Made by a program: the position numbers and the translations under genes
Source of the DNA: Promethearchaeota archaeon
GTDB taxonomy: Archaea > Asgardarchaeota > Lokiarchaeia > Sigyniarchaeales > SOKP01
Assembly (NCBI GenBank): GCA_048940925.1
Contig: JBHLOC010000036.1
Location: forward strand, 1-15,822
DNA: 15,822 nucleotides
Direction: 5' to 3'
The notes under the pieces: generated by a model
What the model saw: only the letters and a program-made list of their open reading frames with translations
What the model was told of the DNA's origin: nothing
Databases searched by the model: none
Shown here: positions 690 to 15,521 of the stretch, one piece after another
Layout: every line of letters starts with the position of its first letter
Numbering within the stretch: position 1 is the first letter of the stretch

Positions 690-3600
690 ATGACTAAATT
701 TAAAAATAAATACCACAGATTAGTTCTTACATTTATTTTTACCAGTTTACTTTTTACGCCGATTATTGGAATAGGAGTTATCCAAAGTAATTCTAATGAT
801 TTCAGTCAAAAATCAATATCAAATTTTGATCCTTTGTCGTCATCGATTAAAAACCATTTAAATACAGAGGATCAAGAATTGGATACCCAATTAGATAACA
901 AATTCACTAAATATGATGCAGGCCTTAAAGATTATTTGTTTAATCTAACTATTTCTAATCAAAATAGTCCAAAAAACACGAAAGTAATAGTCCTATTTGA
1001 TTCTAAGATAAATAAGGTAAAAAGAATTGGGATTTTGGATTCTACTTTTGAAGAATATGAAATTTTGGCAAATTATGACATAATTCCTGGAACTTATATT
1101 AAAGTAAGTTCCGACCAGCTCATTGGAGAAGAGAAAATAATAGAGGGAATTCAATCAATAAAAAAAGTCTATAAACCGAAAATGTTTCAAAATCCTTACA
1201 TTTCTGAAGATAATCTTCAGTTGAGTGCGTTAAAGCAAAATTCTTATCCAAATTGGTGGCTTCCTGCTATTGGTGCCGAAAATTTAGCTTATAATGGAAG
1301 TGGTGTTAGAGTTGCTGTTGTTGATACTGGTATGTTTGATCATCCTGCCTTAAATATTGTTGAAAACAAAAATTTCGTCTCAAATGAAAGCGCTTCGAAC
1401 TATCAGGATGATGTAGGTCATGGAACCCATGTTGGGGGGATCATTGCTGGCGATGGAACTGGTTCAGATGGAGAATATCGAGGTGTTGCGCCTGGTGCAT
1501 TGCTAATTAATGCAAAAGCTGGAAATGCTAGCGGATTGGGAGAAGCAGATATTATAAGTGCTATTGAATGGAGTTCAGAGCCAAAGGGACTAGGTGGTGC
1601 GGATGCTGATATAATATCAATGAGTTTTGGTGGAGGATATCCTTATATTTCAGACTTAATAACTCAAGCAATATCCAATGCTAAAGAGAAGTATGGGGTC
1701 ATTTTTGTAGCATCAGCAGGTAATGAAGGACCAGATTATTTTACAGGATCTACACCAGCTGCTGGAGTTAATGTAATATCTGTAGGTGCTAGCGATAAAA
1801 ACAATGAATTGGCATCTTTTAGTAGTTGGGGTCCTACATTTGGGTATTTAGGTTATCCAGATGTCGTTGCTCCTGGAGTTAATATTATTTCAACAGAAGC
1901 GAAAGATTCTATTATATCATCTGAAGAGCATTATAAAGGTGATTATTTTGACTTTACGGGAGACGCTGATTATATTCCATTAAGTGGTACTAGCATGTCA
2001 TGCCCTATGGTTTCTGGAGCTCTAGCTATTTTAAAAGAAGCTTTTCCTAATCTTACGCCTGAAGCTGCTAAGATAGCTTTGTTAGAAGGGGCAAGAAAAC
2101 TTCCTAATGAGCAAGATGAGGGGGTCCTTAAATCGGGGGCAGGTTTAATAAATGTTTCGGCATCATTAAGCTATTTAGATAGTCAAAAACCAAATTATAA
2201 TGATGTTGCTAAAGTCTTTCCAGATAATTTGCCTATTAAACCATTTAACCTATTAAATTTTCCAGGTGATCACTTAAAATTTAATTTAACAATAATTTCT
2301 GGTGATAGTAATACATACGATATAAATATACCATCTAGTATACAAGGTTTATCATTTTCAGTAGATAAACCAAGCATAGATTTTACTGAAGGAGGTATTG
2401 ATTTAATTGAATTAGATATTGCTATAAAAAACATTGCGAAAGCTGGTCTTAGAAACTTTGAGTTAAATATATCATCCGATGGACAGATTTATGATAGGGT
2501 AGATATAAAATTAGATATCCACTTACCAGAATATCGTGTTTTAATGGAATCTTATCACGGAGTAAATGATTGGTTTCCTGACTTTTCATTTAATCAAATG
2601 GGATTTTTTGAAGCGATGAATGATCTTGCTGAAATGAATATCTCAATTGATTATCAAATGGAGCATTGGACTCCAGATTATAATAAATACACGAATAATT
2701 CGATTTTAACAGAAGAAAAGTTAGCACAGTATGATATAGTAATTTTACAGACACCAATCTTACCTTTTAGTCCTTTAGAAATAAATAATCTGAGAAATTA
2801 TTTTGATAATGGAGGGAATTTAATATTTTTAGGAACAAGATATCAGGATATGGCAGTAGAAAACGTAAATTACCTATTTTCTCAATTAGATTTAGGTATT
2901 CAAATGAACGAAGAAAATATCATGGATGATAAGTGGTTAGGAATAGGAGCTAGTGTAACGTCTCAACCTGTTTATAATTTCACCAATAACTATATCTTTA
3001 ATAATGTTAGCAAGTTCTATTGGGGATATGGTAATAGCTTTAATGTGTTAAATGCAGCAGATTCCATTGCTACCCTTAGTAATGCAACAGTTGTAGCTTT
3101 TTATAACGGAACCACTGAAGGTAAAGGGCAATTTTTAGCTTTTGGAGATTTACATTGGATTTATAATAAATATAAATCACAAAATTATGCTCAAGATCAT
3201 GCAACTTTATTAAAGAACATAATAAATTCTTTTCTATCTAAAAGAGAAGTCTCAATAAATATTGAATTAAATTCGGAACGTACTTCGTCCTCTCAGAACG
3301 AAATTTCTCTTTATTTAAAATACCAAAAAACAGAATCTCCAATTACTTCTTATGGTGACTTGGAATTAACAATTCAAAATGAAGCTTACTCGCAATCAAT
3401 TATACTTGATACTAGTTTGTCAAATGAAGGAATTTATTTCAACAATTCTTTTAGTTTACCCTCTCCAAGTTATATTCCTTATTCAATTATCGCTAATTTA
3501 ACTATAGATTCAAAACAGTATAATAAAGAAACAAAAATCCTTTATTATAATCAAAGTAAGGTTCCAAAGATACTTAACATCACAACAAGCCAATCTTCTG

Positions 3601-4676
3601 TATCAAGAGAAAGCGGTAGCACTATAAATCTGATTGCTAAATTAGATAAGACAACTTATGCTAATTTTGAAGGCTTTTTATCAATCTATTCATATTCTTT
3701 CTTCAACACTAAGACGACTGTTAATAAAACTTTAAAATTTGATCATATTTCAAATGAATACATAGAAACATTTAATCCAGATGCTAGTGATCCTTCGGGT
3801 CAAGCTATTTTCTACGTTATTCCTTCAAATGATAACTATAGTACTCCAAATTCACCTAGATTTACTTTTCAGATTATAAATAATCCCCCTGAAATTTTAA
3901 AATCAAGTTCTACTTTCAATATAGATGGAAATCAAGATATTTATTTTAAAGATACTGAAACAGATAAACATACTAATGTTTATAGTGCCTCTCAAGGTAG
4001 TAAAATTAATTTCATAATAGATGCTAAAGATTCAGTTAATTATGAAGATAAAATTTCAGAACTGCGAGTTTTTGTTAATTTAATAATTGCTACGGTATCT
4101 GGAGAAGGATATTTGATATTTATTTACCCAAGTAATATCATAGTTGATGAATTGCTTTTTCAATCTGATTCAAGTAAATATGAGGGAACTTTTATAATTC
4201 CAAATAACATGGAATATGATTCCATTTCAGGAACTAAATCAATATCAACAGCTACAAATTTCGATAGTTCTACGGGGAAAGGATATTTAGGTGTATTATA
4301 CATTACTGTTTATGATAGTGAAGGAAAGTATGATGATTTTTTGATTGTAGTTACAATTGCTAGTAAACCAATCGATATGATGATGATACTATTAATTGTG
4401 TTACCAATCATTGCCGTAATTGCTATAGCTAGTATGCTATTATATTATTCAAGAAGACGTAAAAGAAGACAGTATTCACAAACACAACCAGGATTTCGTG
4501 ATTATTATTATCAACCTTCTTATGAGCCTCAAGAACAAACTTATACTACTCCTGAACCTATACCCGAATTAGGACCTGGAATGTATTGTCCTTTCTGTGG
4601 AAAGTTAATAAAGACGCCTAAAAAGTTTTGTCCAAATTGTGGGGAATCACTTGATCTCAATAAACAAAATGAGTAA
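690..4676 (+). CDS. Membrane-anchored S8 (subtilisin-family) serine peptidase with a GATase/GldG/DUF4350-like domain, C-terminal TM helix and zinc ribbon; Site-1-protease-like architecture
   Basis: N-terminal hydrophobic signal, propeptide-like region, catalytic D212 (VAVVDTG), H244 (HGTHVGG), oxyanion N345 (AGNEG) and S435 (SGTSMSCP). These are followed by an 'LAQYDIVIL...FSPLEINNLRNYFDNGGNLIFLG...FLAFGD' domain, a TM ILLIVLPIIAVIAIASMLLYY with RRRKRR stop-transfer, and CPFCG...CPNCG. Confidence 0.95.
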   Translation: MTKFKNKYHRLVLTFIFTSLLFTPIIGIGVIQSNSNDFSQKSISNFDPLSSSIKNHLNTEDQELDTQLDNKFTKYDAGLKDYLFNLTISNQNSPKNTKVIVLFDSKINKVKRIGILDSTFEEYEILANYDIIPGTYIKVSSDQLIGEEKIIEGIQSIKKVYKPKMFQNPYISEDNLQLSALKQNSYPNWWLPAIGAENLAYNGSGVRVAVVDTGMFDHPALNIVENKNFVSNESASNYQDDVGHGTHVGGIIAGDGTGSDGEYRGVAPGALLINAKAGNASGLGEADIISAIEWSSEPKGLGGADADIISMSFGGGYPYISDLITQAISNAKEKYGVIFVASAGNEGPDYFTGSTPAAGVNVISVGASDKNNELASFSSWGPTFGYLGYPDVVAPGVNIISTEAKDSIISSEEHYKGDYFDFTGDADYIPLSGTSMSCPMVSGALAILKEAFPNLTPEAAKIALLEGARKLPNEQDEGVLKSGAGLINVSASLSYLDSQKPNYNDVAKVFPDNLPIKPFNLLNFPGDHLKFNLTIISGDSNTYDINIPSSIQGLSFSVDKPSIDFTEGGIDLIELDIAIKNIAKAGLRNFELNISSDGQIYDRVDIKLDIHLPEYRVLMESYHGVNDWFPDFSFNQMGFFEAMNDLAEMNISIDYQMEHWTPDYNKYTNNSILTEEKLAQYDIVILQTPILPFSPLEINNLRNYFDNGGNLIFLGTRYQDMAVENVNYLFSQLDLGIQMNEENIMDDKWLGIGASVTSQPVYNFTNNYIFNNVSKFYWGYGNSFNVLNAADSIATLSNATVVAFYNGTTEGKGQFLAFGDLHWIYNKYKSQNYAQDHATLLKNIINSFLSKREVSINIELNSERTSSSQNEISLYLKYQKTESPITSYGDLELTIQNEAYSQSIILDTSLSNEGIYFNNSFSLPSPSYIPYSIIANLTIDSKQYNKETKILYYNQSKVPKILNITTSQSSVSRESGSTINLIAKLDKTTYANFEGFLSIYSYSFFNTKTTVNKTLKFDHISNEYIETFNPDASDPSGQAIFYVIPSNDNYSTPNSPRFTFQIINNPPEILKSSSTFNIDGNQDIYFKDTETDKHTNVYSASQGSKINFIIDAKDSVNYEDKISELRVFVNLIIATVSGEGYLIFIYPSNIIVDELLFQSDSSKYEGTFIIPNNMEYDSISGTKSISTATNFDSSTGKGYLGVLYITVYDSEGKYDDFLIVVTIASKPIDMMMILLIVLPIIAVIAIASMLLYYSRRRKRRQYSQTQPGFRDYYYQPSYEPQEQTYTTPEPIPELGPGMYCPFCGKLIKTPKKFCPNCGESLDLNKQNE

Positions 4677-4718: not shown

Positions 4719-5429
4719 TTATTTTTTTTCTAAAATTATTACTTCGCCATTTTTGGTTCCTATATATACTTTAGAGGCAATATTAATAAATAATCCTGTA
4801 TCAACTACGCCAGGAATTTTCATAATCTTTAAATCAAGTGCTTTAGGATTTGTAATTTCACCAAAATCAGTATCGATTATAAAATTGCCATTATCAGTTA
4901 TTAATGGTCCACTTTTCGATTGAGCCATCCGAAGAATCGGTTTTCCGCCTAGCTTTGACAGTTTTTTCATTATTGGAATGTAAGCCATGGGAATTACCTC
5001 AATAGGAACTCCCTTTTTCCATTTAGTGCCTAAGATTTCTGATTTTTTTCTAAAATCAGCAATGATAACTAACTTTTTTGAATTTGAAGCTAAAATCTTT
5101 TCTTGTACTAAGCAGCCTCCTCCACCTTTAATTAAGTTAAGATCTTTATCAATCTCATCAGCACCATCAATATCTAAGTCAATTTCTGGAAATTGTTCCA
5201 AGGAAGCTAAATCTAAATTATTTTCAATTATTAATTGATATGATTGAAATGAACTTGGGATACATTTTAGGTTTAAAGAGCTCTTTTGATTGATTCTGGC
5301 TATATGTTGGACCGCATAGACGATGGTTGAACCGCTTCCTATTCCTATAATCATGTTTTTTTTCACATTTTCTTCTACAGCTCTTTCTGCTGCTAATCTC
5401 TTTCCCTTTTCGATTATATCTTCAGTCAT
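4719..5429 (-). CDS. rpiA: Ribose-5-phosphate isomerase A
   Basis: Signature motifs IGIGSGST, DGADEID, LIKGGGG(C)LVQEK, VPIEV, TDNGNFIID and IPGVVDTGLF. AGTGAT RBS-like motif upstream of the ATG. Confidence 0.97.
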   Translation of the reverse strand: MTEDIIEKGKRLAAERAVEENVKKNMIIGIGSGSTIVYAVQHIARINQKSSLNLKCIPSSFQSYQLIIENNLDLASLEQFPEIDLDIDGADEIDKDLNLIKGGGGCLVQEKILASNSKKLVIIADFRKKSEILGTKWKKGVPIEVIPMAYIPIMKKLSKLGGKPILRMAQSKSGPLITDNGNFIIDTDFGEITNPKALDLKIMKIPGVVDTGLFINIASKVYIGTKNGEVIILEKK

Positions 5430-5447
5430 AGGATCACTATAAAATTA

Positions 5448-5846
5448 TTATTTCATTAAATTTAGAATTCTAATAGCTAAATGTGCCGCATTATCACCTC
5501 TATCAATTCCCACACTTGCAACTGGTACTCCAGGAGGCATTTGTACAATTGATAATAGAGCATCTAATCCACCTAATTTTGCGCTAACAGGAACACCTAT
5601 TACAGGTTTATCTGTTTTGGATGCAATCATCCCAGGTAATGCAGCTGATAAACCTGCAACAGCAATATATACTAAAGAATCACACTTTTCTAAGTATTCA
5701 TTTAATTTTTCAGGATTTCTATGAACAGAAATAATTTGTAAATCATATTTTATATTATTTTCTCTTAAAATTTTCTCTGCTTTTTCATAAACTTCTTTAT
5801 CAGAAGTACTAGCCGCAAGAATTGATACTAGTGGTCGTTCAGCCAT
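5448..5846 (-). CDS. purE: PurE (AIR carboxylase / N5-CAIR mutase family)
   Basis: [30 protein letters not shown] and [22 protein letters not shown] motifs. An 18-nt gap to rpiA suggests co-transcription. Confidence 0.93.
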
Positions 5847-6021
5847 AATTAATCTAGCAATTTTAAAAATAAAAATGATATTAATTGTTTCTTAATCTTC
5901 AATTCATATTAACGAAAATAAAGATCTCCTTATCAAAAAGTTTAATATTTCCTTTAAATTTCCACAATTAACATTTAAATTTGATAATAAAACTGTAAAA
6001 AATATAGAGTGATATTAAGAT

Positions 6022-7308
6022 ATGGTAGATCTAAATGAAGTATGGCTTGTGGATTATGCGAGAACTGCTTTTTCTCGTTCCAGACCCAGAGAACCTGAAA
6101 GAGATGTATTTGGTGAAGTTAGAGGTGATGAACTGCTTGCAACCTTACTAATGAAATTTTTTGACGAAAAACTGGCTGATAAAGGAATCGAAAAGAAAGA
6201 AATTGAAGAATTCACTGTTGGTAGCGCAATGGGTGTTTATGAAGCATGGACTTATGGGGGTAGACTTCCACTGTTTTTAGCAGAATTTCCTGCTCATGTA
6301 CCTGCCATGTTTGTTGATAGACAATGTGGTTCTGCAGGAAGTGGTATGCATGTTGGTATTATGGAGATTATGACAGGTAACAGCAAAATCTGCTTAGCTG
6401 GGGGAGTAGAACATATGACACGTGTTCCAATGCAAAATAATTGGATAAGTCCTAACATGGGTATAATCAATAGAAAAAGTAAATGGTTTCGCCCACAATT
6501 CGACTTTATGACAACAAGTAATATGATTCAAACAGCTCAAAAACTTTATGAGGAAGAAATTCCAGCTTTTACAAAGGAAGATTTAGATAAGTTTGGAGTA
6601 AGAAGTCACAATTTAACTGTAAAATATACAGAAGAAGGTTGGTATAAAGGCGAGATAATTCCTGTGGAAGGACATGTTGAGGGGAATGTTGAGGAGAAAA
6701 TGATGGTAGATAGGGACATGGCAGCACGAAAATCCACATTAGAGGGAGTTGGTGGATTACGACGATTATCCAGAGCATTTTTCCTAGAAAAAAATGGAGG
6801 GAAAGAAGGTTATGAAAAAAGAGAAGGAACAGCAGAAGGAGTAATTACTGCTGGTAATTCTTCACCGTTAAATGCGGGTGCTACTACGTGTTTAGTAATG
6901 GATGCAAAAGAAGCGGAAACACGTGGATTAAACCCCATGGCTAGAATTGTTTCAATAGGTTGGGCTGCTGTAGATCCTACAGTTATGGGACGAGGCCCAG
7001 TTCCAGCAACTGAAAGAGCATTAAAATATGCTGGTTTGACTCCAGATGATATTGATTATTGGGAAATAAATGAAGCATTCACCATTGTAACTCTTAACTG
7101 TATGAAAGCATTTAACATTCCTGAAGAAAAAGTTAATGTTATGGGAGGTGCTACTGCTATTGGACATCCATTAGGAGCAACAATGATAAGATTACCAGGT
7201 ACTCTTGCTCGAATTTTAAAAGATAAAAAAGCTAAATATGGTGTTGCCAACGCTTGTGTTGGTGGCGGACAAGGTGTCGCGACCATATTAGAAAACCTTG
7301 ATGCATAA
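6022..7308 (+). CDS. Acetyl-CoA C-acyltransferase (thiolase)
   Basis: Catalytic motifs RQCGS, GGVEHM, TAGNSSPLNAGA, EINEAF, GHPLGA and ACVGGGQG are intact. GAGTGAT RBS upstream. Confidence 0.96.
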   Translation: MVDLNEVWLVDYARTAFSRSRPREPERDVFGEVRGDELLATLLMKFFDEKLADKGIEKKEIEEFTVGSAMGVYEAWTYGGRLPLFLAEFPAHVPAMFVDRQCGSAGSGMHVGIMEIMTGNSKICLAGGVEHMTRVPMQNNWISPNMGIINRKSKWFRPQFDFMTTSNMIQTAQKLYEEEIPAFTKEDLDKFGVRSHNLTVKYTEEGWYKGEIIPVEGHVEGNVEEKMMVDRDMAARKSTLEGVGGLRRLSRAFFLEKNGGKEGYEKREGTAEGVITAGNSSPLNAGATTCLVMDAKEAETRGLNPMARIVSIGWAAVDPTVMGRGPVPATERALKYAGLTPDDIDYWEINEAFTIVTLNCMKAFNIPEEKVNVMGGATAIGHPLGATMIRLPGTLARILKDKKAKYGVANACVGGGQGVATILENLDA

Positions 7309-8832: not shown

Positions 8833-9297
8833 CTATATCTCATGTTCGTACCAGATAAATTTTGATTTTTTTATTCCAAGTTTTATAAGTAGACTACGAA
8901 AGGCACTGTCAGAGTCAGGGCAAATGAAATAGACTTTATCTATTTTAAGTGTTCTTTTAATATACAATTGTAATTCTCGAATTAATTTTTCTTCAATTCC
9001 TTTTTTGAAAGAATCTTCCTTTCTTGTCATGATTTGATGGATTATGACTCTATCATTTCCTAAATAGTCTCGAAATATAGTATACATTCCAAACCCTACG
9101 ATTTTTCCCTCTTCCTTCCCGATGATCATGCCGTTTCTGTATTGTAAATCTAATGTTCTTTTGTTCAGTTCTTCCTCAAATTTTTGCCAATGTGAAAAGA
9201 AATATGATTTATTCTCAATAAAATCATTAAATAACGCTTTTAATGCTTCTTTATCGCTCCTAGGGTCATATCTATCAATAACGATCAAATTTATCAC
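8833..9297 (-). CDS. GNAT-fold protein (degenerate acetyltransferase-like); true start possibly TTG 9288
   Basis: GNAT strand pattern 'MIIGKEEGKIVGFGMY...VIIHQIMTR...KKGIEEKLI...KVYFIC...LIKLGI'. The called GTG lies inside a GGTGAT RBS-like motif that precedes TTG 9288. Confidence 0.7.
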   Translation of the reverse strand: MINLIVIDRYDPRSDKEALKALFNDFIENKSYFFSHWQKFEEELNKRTLDLQYRNGMIIGKEEGKIVGFGMYTIFRDYLGNDRVIIHQIMTRKEDSFKKGIEEKLIRELQLYIKRTLKIDKVYFICPDSDSAFRSLLIKLGIKKSKFIWYEHEI

Positions 9298-13034: not shown

Positions 13035-13583
13035 ATGAAACCAGATTATATATTAAAAATGTGTATATTAGGGCAGAGTGGAGTTGGAAAAACTTCTTTA
13101 GTTAGAAGGCTTTGTTATAATACTTTTGATATAAATACAAAAGAGACCATAGGTCTTGATTTTTATTCGTACGATCTTATCTTTCCTATACAAGAAAGGG
13201 AAGTTTTTGTAAAACTCTCGATCTGGGATTTTGGTAGTCAAGAACAATTTCGAAATTTATTTAGATATTATATTACGGGAGTTAATGGGCTTTTTTTAGC
13301 TTTTGATCTTGTAAATATTCAAAGTTTATTTAATTTAAAATGGTGGTATGATAGCCTACTTGAATATAATCATGAAAATGTCCCAATCATACTCTTAGGT
13401 ACAAAAAATGATTTAATTTTCAATTCTTCAACAAATAATAGTATTGATGAAACTACTATTTACAAAACACAAGAAGAATTTAACATTAAGGACTTTATTC
13501 GAACTTCCTCAAAAGATAATTATAATATTTTACATAGTTTTGAAAAATTAGTAGAAGAAATCTTACTATATTATGAATTGTAA
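13035..13583 (+). CDS. Rab-like small GTPase (Ras superfamily)
   Basis: G1 GQSGVGKTS, G2/RabF1-like TIGLDF, RabF2-like KLSIW, G3 variant WDFGSQ, G4 variant TKND and G5 TSSK. No C-terminal prenylation cysteine. Confidence 0.92.
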   Translation: MKPDYILKMCILGQSGVGKTSLVRRLCYNTFDINTKETIGLDFYSYDLIFPIQEREVFVKLSIWDFGSQEQFRNLFRYYITGVNGLFLAFDLVNIQSLFNLKWWYDSLLEYNHENVPIILLGTKNDLIFNSSTNNSIDETTIYKTQEEFNIKDFIRTSSKDNYNILHSFEKLVEEILLYYEL

Positions 13584-13739
13584 TATACTAAATTTTATCG
13601 AACGATTCCTTAATAATTAAATCTTAATCAAATCCACCACTAATTTTTTATATATATTATTTCTATGATCAAATGAAAAAGAGAAATAAAAACTGTGGTT
13701 AATTCATTTTAATATTCAAATCTTAAATTGTGTTTCAAT

Positions 13740-14738
13740 GTGTCTATAGAATTTTATAATCCACCCTCGGCAATATTGGCATCTGGATCAAAACTTGGAG
13801 TAGAACTTGGAGGTTCAAAGAGTATTCTCAGTATTGATTCACTTCATAATTTATATACTGAAGGTGTAATTTTTAGCGAGTTAAGTTGGGGTGCATTCTA
13901 TCAAGAAGAGGGGCTTGAAGACCAAATTGATACTTTTCAGACAAAAGAATATGACTCTGTACGAGAGGATCCTGAAGCGTTAGTCAATACAATTGTGGAA
14001 AGTGTATATAGTATCATTAATAACAAAAAACTTTTCTATGGGATTGCTGATTTTGAAGTAGATGCATTTCTTAATCAGAATACAATTATTCCAGGATTAA
14101 AATTAGATTATACAATTGTAAACAAACTATTAGAAGCTCATAAAAAAACTAGAGATGCGGAATTATTCCCAAAATTATTATCAGACGCTAAAGGTAGTCA
14201 TAGAGTCAGAGTTGAATTTCAAGGTAATAAAAAAAGGAAACTTCATCTTTTGGGTACTAAGTTAGAAGATTTTGCTGATTTATTGAGATTAGCTAATGGG
14301 TTCGCTACAGGAATTGTATGTACTTCCCGAGGTGCTGCTAATCTTTATATCATGAGCGATAATATTGTATTTAAAGATGATGTACTTCCGGAGCTTTATA
14401 TTGATGAGGAAAATCTTCAAATAATTGATTTAGGGATTGAAAGAAAATTATTATTTCCTATTAGTTGGTTCAGAATTGACCTTGGTATCAAATCATTAGA
14501 AACTTTAGAACTTTGGGATGACATTAAAGATAATTCAAAATTAAAGAAAGCGTTTGAATATTATGACCGATATATTACTGGATTAGTCTATAAAAAATTT
14601 CAAGTCTTAGCTTCTACTGAAAAAATAGGGAGAAATGGAGAAGAAGATTTCGATACGCTTAGTCCTGAAGAAAGAAGGCAGGCACTAAGAGATATGGCTG
14701 AAGCGATAAAAAAGTTGACAGAAGAGTATAAGAAATAG
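13740..14738 (+). CDS. Hypothetical soluble protein (about 332 aa; ORF track start TTG 13728, preferred start GTG 13740)
   Basis: Long ORF with globular composition. TTTAATAT at 13708-13715 lies 25-32 nt upstream of GTG 13740. No family recognised. Confidence 0.85.
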   Translation: MSIEFYNPPSAILASGSKLGVELGGSKSILSIDSLHNLYTEGVIFSELSWGAFYQEEGLEDQIDTFQTKEYDSVREDPEALVNTIVESVYSIINNKKLFYGIADFEVDAFLNQNTIIPGLKLDYTIVNKLLEAHKKTRDAELFPKLLSDAKGSHRVRVEFQGNKKRKLHLLGTKLEDFADLLRLANGFATGIVCTSRGAANLYIMSDNIVFKDDVLPELYIDEENLQIIDLGIERKLLFPISWFRIDLGIKSLETLELWDDIKDNSKLKKAFEYYDRYITGLVYKKFQVLASTEKIGRNGEEDFDTLSPEERRQALRDMAEAIKKLTEEYKK

Positions 14739-15167: not shown

Positions 15168-15521
15168 ATGAGTGATAAAGAAGATTTGAGGCTTGAAATT
15201 CCTAGTTATGCTTATATCTCTCTTGCTCGTAGGGGTATGGAAAAAATTTCCTTAGATCAATGCTTTTTAGAAGATTGTGATAATGAAGACTCTAAATTAT
15301 TAGAACCTTTTAAAAAGGAGGAATATGAGGAGGAAAATAAACATATTAAAAAAATCCATATCAAATGTAAAAAGTGTGATGGAATCTTTATTTTAAAGTT
15401 AGTGACTGTGAAGAAAGTTGCAAAATCAACTAAAAATGAAAAGGAAGAACCTTTATCAATGGGTATAGTATACGCATTAGATGAAAATGAAAATTCTCTT
15501 GGTCATATTGGCTATTTTTAA
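15168..15521 (+). CDS. Hypothetical protein with four cysteines (CFLEDC...CKKC), putative zinc-binding
   Basis: 117-aa ORF divergent from gatC, with C-x4-C and C-x2-C pairs. TTTATAAT at 15123-15130 upstream. Confidence 0.8.
   Translation: MSDKEDLRLEIPSYAYISLARRGMEKISLDQCFLEDCDNEDSKLLEPFKKEEYEEENKHIKKIHIKCKKCDGIFILKLVTVKKVAKSTKNEKEEPLSMGIVYALDENENSLGHIGYF

Follow-up and report, generated by a model that had tools for sequence, protein, structure and literature searches.

A membrane-anchored subtilase of Asgard archaea with a GIFT domain and its resemblance to Site-1 protease

A membrane-anchored subtilase, P0001, is encoded in contig JBHLOC010000036.1 (GenBank assembly GCA_048940925.1) of a Promethearchaeota archaeon, and its architecture and predicted fold are those of the eukaryotic Site-1 protease (S1P, also MBTPS1 or SKI-1). 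The window analyzed here is the entire 15.8-kb contig (15,822 nucleotides, nt); the parent genome has 4.8 Mb and approximately 29–31% G+C, and carries one copy of the gene. The assignment of P0001 as an S1P-like Asgard membrane subtilase is well supported, and nothing prokaryotic in our searches comes closer to S1P than the family it represents. At the same time, P0001 is not an S1P orthologue in function; we observe no evidence of SREBP-like substrates or of coupling to S2P.

In the eukaryotic secretory pathway, S1P has a central processing role, its substrates including SREBP, ATF6, GlcNAc-1-phosphotransferase, and viral glycoproteins. Literature searches yielded no prokaryotic S1P counterpart and no paper tying Asgard archaea to S1P, and, judging by the literature searched, the architecture and fold of S1P had not been described for an archaeal protein before. 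The best overall explanation of the data is a self-activating, membrane-held subtilase whose core, formed by the peptidase S8, beta, and GIFT (GldG/IFT52-type, GATase-like) domains, is shared with S1P by descent; we hold this explanation with about even confidence.

Architecture of P0001

A preliminary description, made from the sequence alone, had divided the protein into a signal peptide, a propeptide, an intact S8 domain, a beta-rich region, a GATase-like domain, a further ectodomain, one transmembrane helix, and a tail. This anatomy is borne out by Pfam, AF2 models, and the sequence itself (Table 1), the GATase-like domain being a GIFT domain. The N-terminus comprises a basic n-region (K/K/K/H/R) and a 21-residue hydrophobic stretch, and residues 1–33 are likely to be an export signal peptide or an anchor. 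Residues 95–197 align with the N-propeptide and the start of the Thermococcus kodakarensis subtilase Tk-SP (3afg_A, residues 34–131).

P0001 belongs to peptidase family S8, with the Asp-His-Ser triad in the proper order, the oxyanion Asn, and a Peptidase_S8 (PF00082) match above the cut-off (residues 203–476, E = 1.5e-51, 175.9 bits vs. 21.8). The catalytic set is complete and consists of D212 (nt 1323), H244 (nt 1419), the oxyanion N345 (nt 1722), and S435 (nt 1992). Among the S8 sequences aligned, a 12-residue insert at residues 413–424 (nt 1926–1961) is found only in the Asgard S8-GIFT family.

Downstream of the catalytic domain, the AF2 model of residues 498–900 (pLDDT 76) has a beta-sandwich (residues 498–614) followed by an alpha/beta GATase-like domain (residues 615–854). 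The latter is matched by the Pfam model IFT52_GIFT at residues 664–745 (E = 4.8e-10, 39.4 bits vs. the cut-off of 27.2), and, given this above-cut-off match together with the matching GATase-like fold, the middle domain of P0001 is a true GIFT domain. The stalk that follows, with no match in the Pfam scan of residues 855–1229, carries six of the 20 N-x-S/T sequons of the ectodomain. The transmembrane helix, MMMILLIVLPIIAVIAIASMLLYY, is followed by SRRRKRR, in agreement with the positive-inside rule, and zinc-ribbon Pfam models match the tail at residues 1299–1320 with E from 2e-4 to 3e-4, below their cut-offs.

Similarity to S1P in fold and sequence

The AF2 model of residues 190–900, built without templates, has a pLDDT of 87.8 and a pTM of 0.85, the domain arrangement being confident as well. 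In a Foldseek search of PDB with this model, S1P comes first (9csd_A, E = 9e-39; 8uw8_A, E = 1e-37; TM-scores 0.61/0.59, about 760 columns), followed by Vpr (E = 2e-31, TM-score 0.41) and then Tk-SP. VIA superposes 574 residues on 8uw8_A at 5.0 Å (model residues 1–661 on S1P residues 193–872), compared to approximately 250–300 residues, essentially the S8 domain, for most other listed chains, 383 for Vpr, and 327 for KP-43. The nearest ESM Atlas cluster is eukaryotic S1P as well (TM-scores 0.67/0.61, 579 residues aligned).

The same result is obtained with the S8 core excluded, as the preliminary description had proposed: Foldseek with residues 498–900 retrieves S1P first in PDB (E = 8e-13, 437 columns, both domains), and IFT52 comes next with the GIFT domain alone (E = 4e-11). 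In the comparison of the beta and GIFT model with S1P, the beta domain pairs with S1P residues 479–616. We regard it as well supported that the predicted spatial arrangement of the three domains matches that of solved S1P.

Mature S1P comprises an S8 subdomain, a non-canonical beta subdomain termed “P-like,” a GIFT subdomain (residues 617–998), and a transmembrane helix (PMC11231238), in agreement with the order that the preliminary description had given. The S1P GIFT subdomain packs on S8 loops 338–348 and 372–384 and steadies the oxyanion Asn338, and according to the cryo-EM study of the S1P-SPRING complex it is distinctive for S1P among proprotein convertases (PMC11231238).

At the sequence level, BLASTP aligns P0001 with mammalian S1P in one piece (residues 198–728 on 206–738, 24% identity, E = 3e-23), and hence the domain boundaries coincide with those of S1P within approximately 10 residues. 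Four motif parallels noticed previously are in register in this alignment, that is, the helix after the catalytic Ser, FNLTIISG/VNVTILNG, RVLMESYH/RILWDQYH (nt 2535), and AQYDIVILQ.../NQYGTLLMV..., and a fifth, GKGQFLAFGD/GGGRIVLYGD, is paired by hhalign; the 36-residue S1P peptide quoted along with them is found letter for letter in human S1P (8uw8_A, residues 688–723).

For profile comparisons, a diverse alignment of 53 family sequences was used. With all three domains, hhalign produces one collinear alignment with S1P of 585 columns (100% probability, E = 2.5e-46), and with S8 excluded, an alignment of 298 columns (97.5% probability, E = 5e-12), compared to E from 0.17 to 0.73 for control alignments with reversed and column-shuffled S1P. 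An earlier comparison of 32 Asgard and 10 animal S1P sequences had yielded just 5% probability and E = 0.007, and the significance results from the addition of divergent subfamilies to the family alignment. The signal outside S8 resides in the GIFT domain (family vs. S1P GIFT: 97.0%, E = 8e-11). Thus, similarity beyond the S8 core, as claimed in the preliminary description, is observed both in profiles and in structure, with the restriction that the GIFT domain is closer to generic GIFT domains, as described below. The region past the GIFT domain has no similarity to the C-terminal region of S1P.

One Tyr is common to the GN[DE]GP.Y loops of P0001 (Y350) and S1P (Y345), and is present in 89% of S1P sequences, in 75% of family members, and in 16% of the remaining S8 sequences. 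In S1P, this Tyr belongs to the loop 338–348, reported to contact the GIFT subdomain. A scan for exclusive residues finds two common to S1P and the family, this Tyr being one of them, vs. one in a control comparison, too few to serve as an argument.

Distribution of the family and affinities of its domains

A word-based search with residues 498–900 as the query returned 192 proteins, and among the best 120, which were looked at, almost all have approximately 1,320–1,340 amino acids (aa). These relatives come from metagenome-assembled genomes of Promethearchaeota, Loki-, Thor-, Hermod-, Hod-, Odin-, and Heimdallarchaeota, and are labeled in the database just as “S8 family serine peptidase.” They are 47–84% identical to P0001 over the full length with every domain conserved, and hence the P0001 gene is real. 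In 94 full-length relatives, the column identity is 0.79 in S8, 0.69 in the beta domain, 0.74 in GIFT, and 0.62 in the stalk, and the CxxC pairs of the tail are conserved across the family.

Further scanning of 1.84 billion representatives by HMMER with the non-catalytic profile, the 150 best matches being examined, added divergent subfamilies of about 1,240–1,380 aa and a form of approximately 810 aa, which retain the S8, beta, GIFT order and, mostly, the transmembrane helix and the zinc-ribbon end. Within these 150 matches, all S8-bearing proteins have the P0001 architecture, and no separate bacterial S8-GIFT family is present. A source name is available for five out of ten clusters looked up, and all five are Asgard. 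Moreover, a scan of one genome per prokaryotic species gave 91 confirmed matching stretches, of which 80 loci were kept, and the titles of all 80 name Promethearchaeota, a different Asgard candidate phylum, or an “uncultured archaeon.” When 61 Asgard genomes were sampled evenly, 17 had a match at E ≤ 1e-10, and with weaker forms counted in, the family is present in at least nine of the 20 sampled Asgard families. Hence the survey suggested in the preliminary description shows that the S8-GIFT family is widespread in the Asgard phylum, not universal. Sequencing runs containing the sequence are DNA runs, from sediment and mangrove metagenomes, with no RNA run listed.

Similarity to S1P could also have arisen by independent fusion, an archaeal envelope subtilase of the Tk-SP/pyrolysin type having separately gained a GIFT domain of the ordinary prokaryotic kind. 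In that case, the architecture would resemble that of S1P by convergence, and the shared packing would reflect the ways in which docking of a GATase-like domain on S8 is possible. We consider this scenario possible, if rather doubtful. The closeness of the catalytic part to Tk-SP speaks for it: Tk-SP is the best PDB sequence match of the propeptide and S8 (residues 95–497 vs. 34–419, E = 2.6e-49), and also the best S8 superposition by VIA (Z 44, root-mean-square deviation (rmsd) 2.0, 36% identity). So does the beta domain, which taken alone fits the beta domain of Vpr (VIA Z 12.4, rmsd 2.0, 101 residues).

A number of observations weigh against shared descent. The S8 domain of S1P, compared with proteins of this genome, scores 83 bits with a 423-aa S8 protease, which has a very long branch in the S8 tree, and 58 bits with P0001, while its score with Bacillus subtilisins is approximately 100 bits. 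In the 61 Asgard genomes mentioned above, its top two matches are S8-GIFT proteins of the divergent subfamilies (111 and 109 bits), and S8 proteins lacking GIFT score 98–113 bits. When aligned separately by hhalign, the beta domain vs. the S1P P-like domain (E = 0.023) and the propeptide vs. the S1P prodomain (E = 0.076) are at the noise level, and the S1P prodomain model MBTP1_N (PF23001) has no match across the whole of P0001.

The S8 trees, too, do not place the family with S1P. Besides 36 family members, the set comprised 19 S1P sequences from animals, plants, and unplaced eukaryotes, and 22 further S8 proteins from Asgard archaea; another 10 S8 proteins were bacterial or haloarchaeal. The plant, insect, and cnidarian S1P sequences were S1P fragments from a search for short S8 proteins nearest S1P, and animal and plant S1P are 64–70% identical in S8. 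As outgroups, the Asgard paralogues and 10 S8 proteins from plasmids were used, which sample the diversity of S8 thinly. In quick maximum-likelihood trees of 87 and 45 rows, with support from the Shimodaira–Hasegawa-like approximate likelihood ratio test (SH-aLRT) alone, plus approximately unbiased (AU) tests, S1P forms a clade on a long stem (0.9–1.8) that does not adjoin the family, the backbone being open; the family members form a single clade, or nearly so (SH-aLRT 87). On the other side, with this thin outgroup sample, a clade uniting S1P and the family is not rejected by the AU test (delta lnL 3.0, p = 0.363). The phylogeny proposed in the preliminary description thus neither groups the family with S1P nor rejects such a grouping. 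A Haloterrigena S8 protein located near the Asgard cluster in one tree was rejected as a candidate relative: the 1,000 residues read contain an Ig-like domain but no GIFT domain.

The GIFT domain is far nearer to generic GIFT domains than to that of S1P. In the 53 family members, Pfam identifies IFT52_GIFT in 50 (at E ≤ 0.01), ABC_transp_aux in 42, MBTPS1_4th (PF23090) in five, and MBTPS1_3rd (PF23094) in none, the latter scanned from residue 190 on. In P0001 itself, neither of the two S1P-specific models matches at E ≤ 1. The five MBTPS1_4th matches are at E < 0.01, the best having E = 4.5e-8, and one member, P0229, passes the cut-off (31.2 vs. 27). The hhalign score of the Asgard GIFT domain is 251 with generic prokaryotic single-domain GIFT proteins (E = 1e-37) and 76 with S1P GIFT, and the S1P GIFT domain scores 98 with the same generic set. 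In PDB, the family profile retrieves IFT52 (E = 2e-5) and not S1P, and eukaryotic S1P is absent from the 150 best representative matches, where dozens of generic GIFT proteins are present. By VIA, the GIFT domain fits IFT52 with Z 19.1 over 209 residues and OST48 with Z 16.9, compared to Z 15.9 for S1P over both domains. In a free GIFT tree including 21 generic GIFT domains, S1P and the Asgard sequences are separated from the latter (support 91). The likelihood is higher, though, when the Asgard sequences are constrained to a clade of their own that excludes S1P (p-AU 0.62), so that neither placement of S1P GIFT prevails. All this, as well as the S8 trees, agrees with independent fusion, and at the level of single domains the result is largely the one that the preliminary description had itself named as contradicting a relationship to S1P.

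The architecture may also be less exclusive than it appears. The second ESM Atlas match is a Methanobacteriota S8 cluster (about 839 aa, 202 members), superposed with a TM-score of 0.62 over residues 1–628, and the layout may thus extend beyond Asgard archaea and eukaryotes. A beta-sandwich commonly follows S8, as in Vpr and Tk-SP, and pairs of beta and GATase-like domains occur in unrelated enzymes.

Several observations speak against independent fusion. Three domains are found in the same order, with boundaries matching within approximately 10 residues over 530 residues and with the same rigid-body arrangement; S1P is first in two structure libraries; all S8-GIFT proteins among the 150 representative matches constitute one family; and the clade of S1P and the family is not rejected by the AU test. 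The same scenario could make the enzyme mainly a nutritional surface protease, feeding a peptide-fermenting archaeon, but for an exoprotease of this kind it would be unusual to be 47–84% identical across 1,300 residues, to occur in one copy, and to retain its gene order (see below).

Returning to shared descent, the argument for it comes from architecture, that is, from the shared fused module, and not from the phylogeny of any domain. That the fused S8-beta-GIFT module is shared with S1P by descent, an Asgard-type protease being its source or sister, seems to us nearly, if not quite, an even call. The stronger form, in which eukaryotic S1P stems directly from the Asgard protease or is its sister, is put forward tentatively, and we lean somewhat away from it. 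The S1P lineage would have inherited a ready-made fused module, and later would have lost the stalk and the zinc-ribbon tail and gained control by SPRING. In a wider version, Asgard GIFT domains may also be the root of the GIFT domains of eukaryotic IFT52 and OST48. The archaeal relative of S1P suggested in the preliminary description thus holds in architecture and fold, and does not hold as S1P-specific affinity of the domains.

Genomic context, putative function, and comparison with known systems

The features of the protein and the additional RNA and protein genes are listed in Table 1.

Table 1. Features of P0001, other genes of the window, and the S8 protease of the same genome best matching S1P
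Feature	Position (nt)	Strand	Basis
tRNA-Ala (anticodon GGC), contig start	2–75	+	tRNA call
Type I membrane-anchored subtilase P0001, whole open reading frame, 1,328 aa	690–4676	+	Translation of the open reading frame
N-terminal signal peptide or signal anchor (predicted), residues 1–33	690–788	+	Read from sequence
Propeptide region, residues 34–189	789–1256	+	Alignment to Tk-SP
Peptidase S8 catalytic domain, residues 190–497	1257–2180	+	Pfam PF00082
Beta-sandwich at the position of the S1P P-like subdomain, residues 498–614	2181–2531	+	AF2 models
GIFT (GldG/IFT52-type, GATase-like) domain, residues 615–854	2532–3251	+	Pfam, AF2, VIA
Conserved beta-rich stalk/further ectodomain, residues 855–1229 (about 375 aa)	3252–4376	+	Family conservation
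Single C-terminal transmembrane helix, residues 1230–1253	4377–4448	+	Read from sequence
Cytoplasmic tail (basic stop-transfer, Tyr/Pro/Glu-rich stretch, zinc ribbon), residues 1254–1328	4449–4676	+	Sequence, Pfam
Zinc ribbon CPFCG-x9-FCPNCG, residues 1300–1318	4587–4643	+	Motif
Ras/Rab-like small GTPase (Ras family, E = 4e-32)	13035–13583	+	Pfam
423-aa S8 protease, top match of the S1P catalytic domain in this genome	C78:41334–42161	+	Search with S1P S8

In 46 to 59 of 81 loci, the order protease, rpiA (minus strand), purE-type AIR carboxylase (minus strand), and thiolase (plus strand) is conserved; in the window, the three neighbors occupy nt 4719–7308. No functional link between the protease and these genes is evident. 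Other neighbors in the window, a dUTPase, an ADP-forming acyl-CoA synthetase, and a PAS histidine kinase, have a housekeeping character, and three open reading frames have no Pfam match (nt 13728–14738, plus strand, 336 aa; 15168–15521, plus strand, 117 aa; 8833–9297, minus strand, 154 aa). In 15 of the 81 loci, a Ras-family GTPase is located divergently upstream of the protease (for example, L012:851–1393, minus strand, E = 1e-47). Such a gene is absent at the present locus, as the contig begins 689 nt upstream of the protease; Ras-family GTPases have many paralogues in this genome.

The preliminary description had further suggested a two-step system, in which P0001 would make the first extracytoplasmic cut in membrane-tethered regulators, to be released by an M50 (S2P) protease. 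An S1P-like ectodomain, a membrane tether, and the predicted outside position of the active site give the right topology for a site-1 cut, and the genome does encode M50 proteases (Peptidase_M50 matches six times, at four places and in four open frames, on contigs other than that of the protease). However, M50 proteases are found in all 14 control genomes, which makes their presence uninformative, and none of the 81 loci has a linked M50 gene or a membrane-anchored regulator or transcription factor, the conserved neighbors being those named above. SPRING1 (PF10218) has no match in this genome, and none in any control genome either, so that its absence is uninformative. Site-1 cuts in bacteria are made by unrelated proteases, e.g., DegS and PrsW, which also counts against a functional equivalent of S1P. 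Hence the two-step system is not supported, and we consider functional equivalence very improbable.

The tail of P0001 resembles those of other membrane proteins. A near-identical tail (a Tyr/Pro-rich stretch and CPFCG.LIKTPKKFCPNCG) ends an unrelated polytopic membrane protein of 364 aa from the same genome (C49:26494–27588, minus strand). Similar zinc ribbons terminate 15 open reading frames of the genome, and seven of these 15 have a hydrophobic stretch shortly before, according to a crude test. As judged from sequence, the Tyr/Pro-rich zinc-ribbon tail may be a shared cytoplasmic module involved in sorting or partner binding.

Returning to the preferred explanation, a self-activating subtilase with the S1P-like core, we propose the following sequence of events. 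The protease would be exported via Sec, folded with the assistance of the propeptide, and then activated by autocleavage, as in Tk-SP and other subtilases. The C-terminal helix would anchor the protease, predicted to be active, on the outer face of the cell membrane, and the stalk would keep it at a distance from the membrane. The GIFT domain is predicted to pack on S8 loops beside the oxyanion Asn, and may thereby steady these loops and influence how the active site is reached, in the way described for S1P. The Tyr-rich tail, in turn, would act as the cytoplasmic module common to other membrane proteins, probably in sorting or partner binding. The ectodomain is highly conserved throughout, the gene is present in one copy, and its order with the neighbors is kept, which suggests that the enzyme acts at the cell surface and cuts exported or membrane proteins in a limited, site-specific manner.

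A more specific role, maturation of surface glycoproteins or the S-layer, with GIFT and the stalk serving to bind glycans or components of the envelope and not to regulate the active site, seems unlikely to us, but it is compatible with the preferred explanation and not exclusive of it. It agrees with the presence of GIFT domains in GldG and in the oligosaccharyltransferase subunit OST48, which the fold matches as given above, with the 20 sequons of the ectodomain, and with the long conserved stalk, which suggests a fixed placement in the envelope. Against it, no glycan-binding site or envelope partner has been identified in P0001, and the GIFT subdomain of S1P acts on the protease itself (PMC11231238).

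If the S1P core indeed descends from Asgard archaea, the SREBP/ATF6 pathway would begin with a protease that is a eukaryotic signature protein of Asgard origin. A family with the three-domain core of S1P in several Asgard lineages would be a candidate addition to the list of such proteins. The S8-GIFT family would also offer a prokaryotic model of the control that GIFT exerts over a subtilase.

Among known systems, S1P (PDB 8UW8 and 9CSD; SBT6.1 in plants) shares with P0001 the type I topology, the order of the prodomain, S8, beta, and GIFT domains, transmembrane helix, and basic cytosolic tail, as well as the domain boundaries within approximately 10 residues, the intact D/H/N/S set, and the three-domain arrangement, in which a predicted model is compared with solved S1P. 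It differs in that the overall identity is only 24–25%, the prodomain of P0001 is unrelated, and P0001 has the extra stalk of approximately 375 aa, the zinc-ribbon tail, and the S8 insert; moreover, the GIFT domain of P0001 is not nearer to that of S1P than to those of generic GIFT proteins. Tk-SP and the pyrolysin-type archaeal subtilases (3AFG, 9UES) have a similar propeptide and S8 with a beta domain after it, but Tk-SP is soluble and secreted, and lacks the GIFT domain, stalk, transmembrane helix, and zinc-ribbon tail. Bacillus subtilis Vpr (8JMW), the third-best Foldseek match, likewise has S8 followed by a beta-sandwich, and, unlike P0001, is bacterial and has neither GIFT nor a membrane anchor. 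Finally, IFT52, OST48/Wbp1, and GldG-type proteins (ABC_transp_aux, DUF4350) have a GIFT domain, as does the middle of P0001, but without fusion to a protease, whereas in P0001 this domain is predicted to be packed on S8, as it is in S1P.

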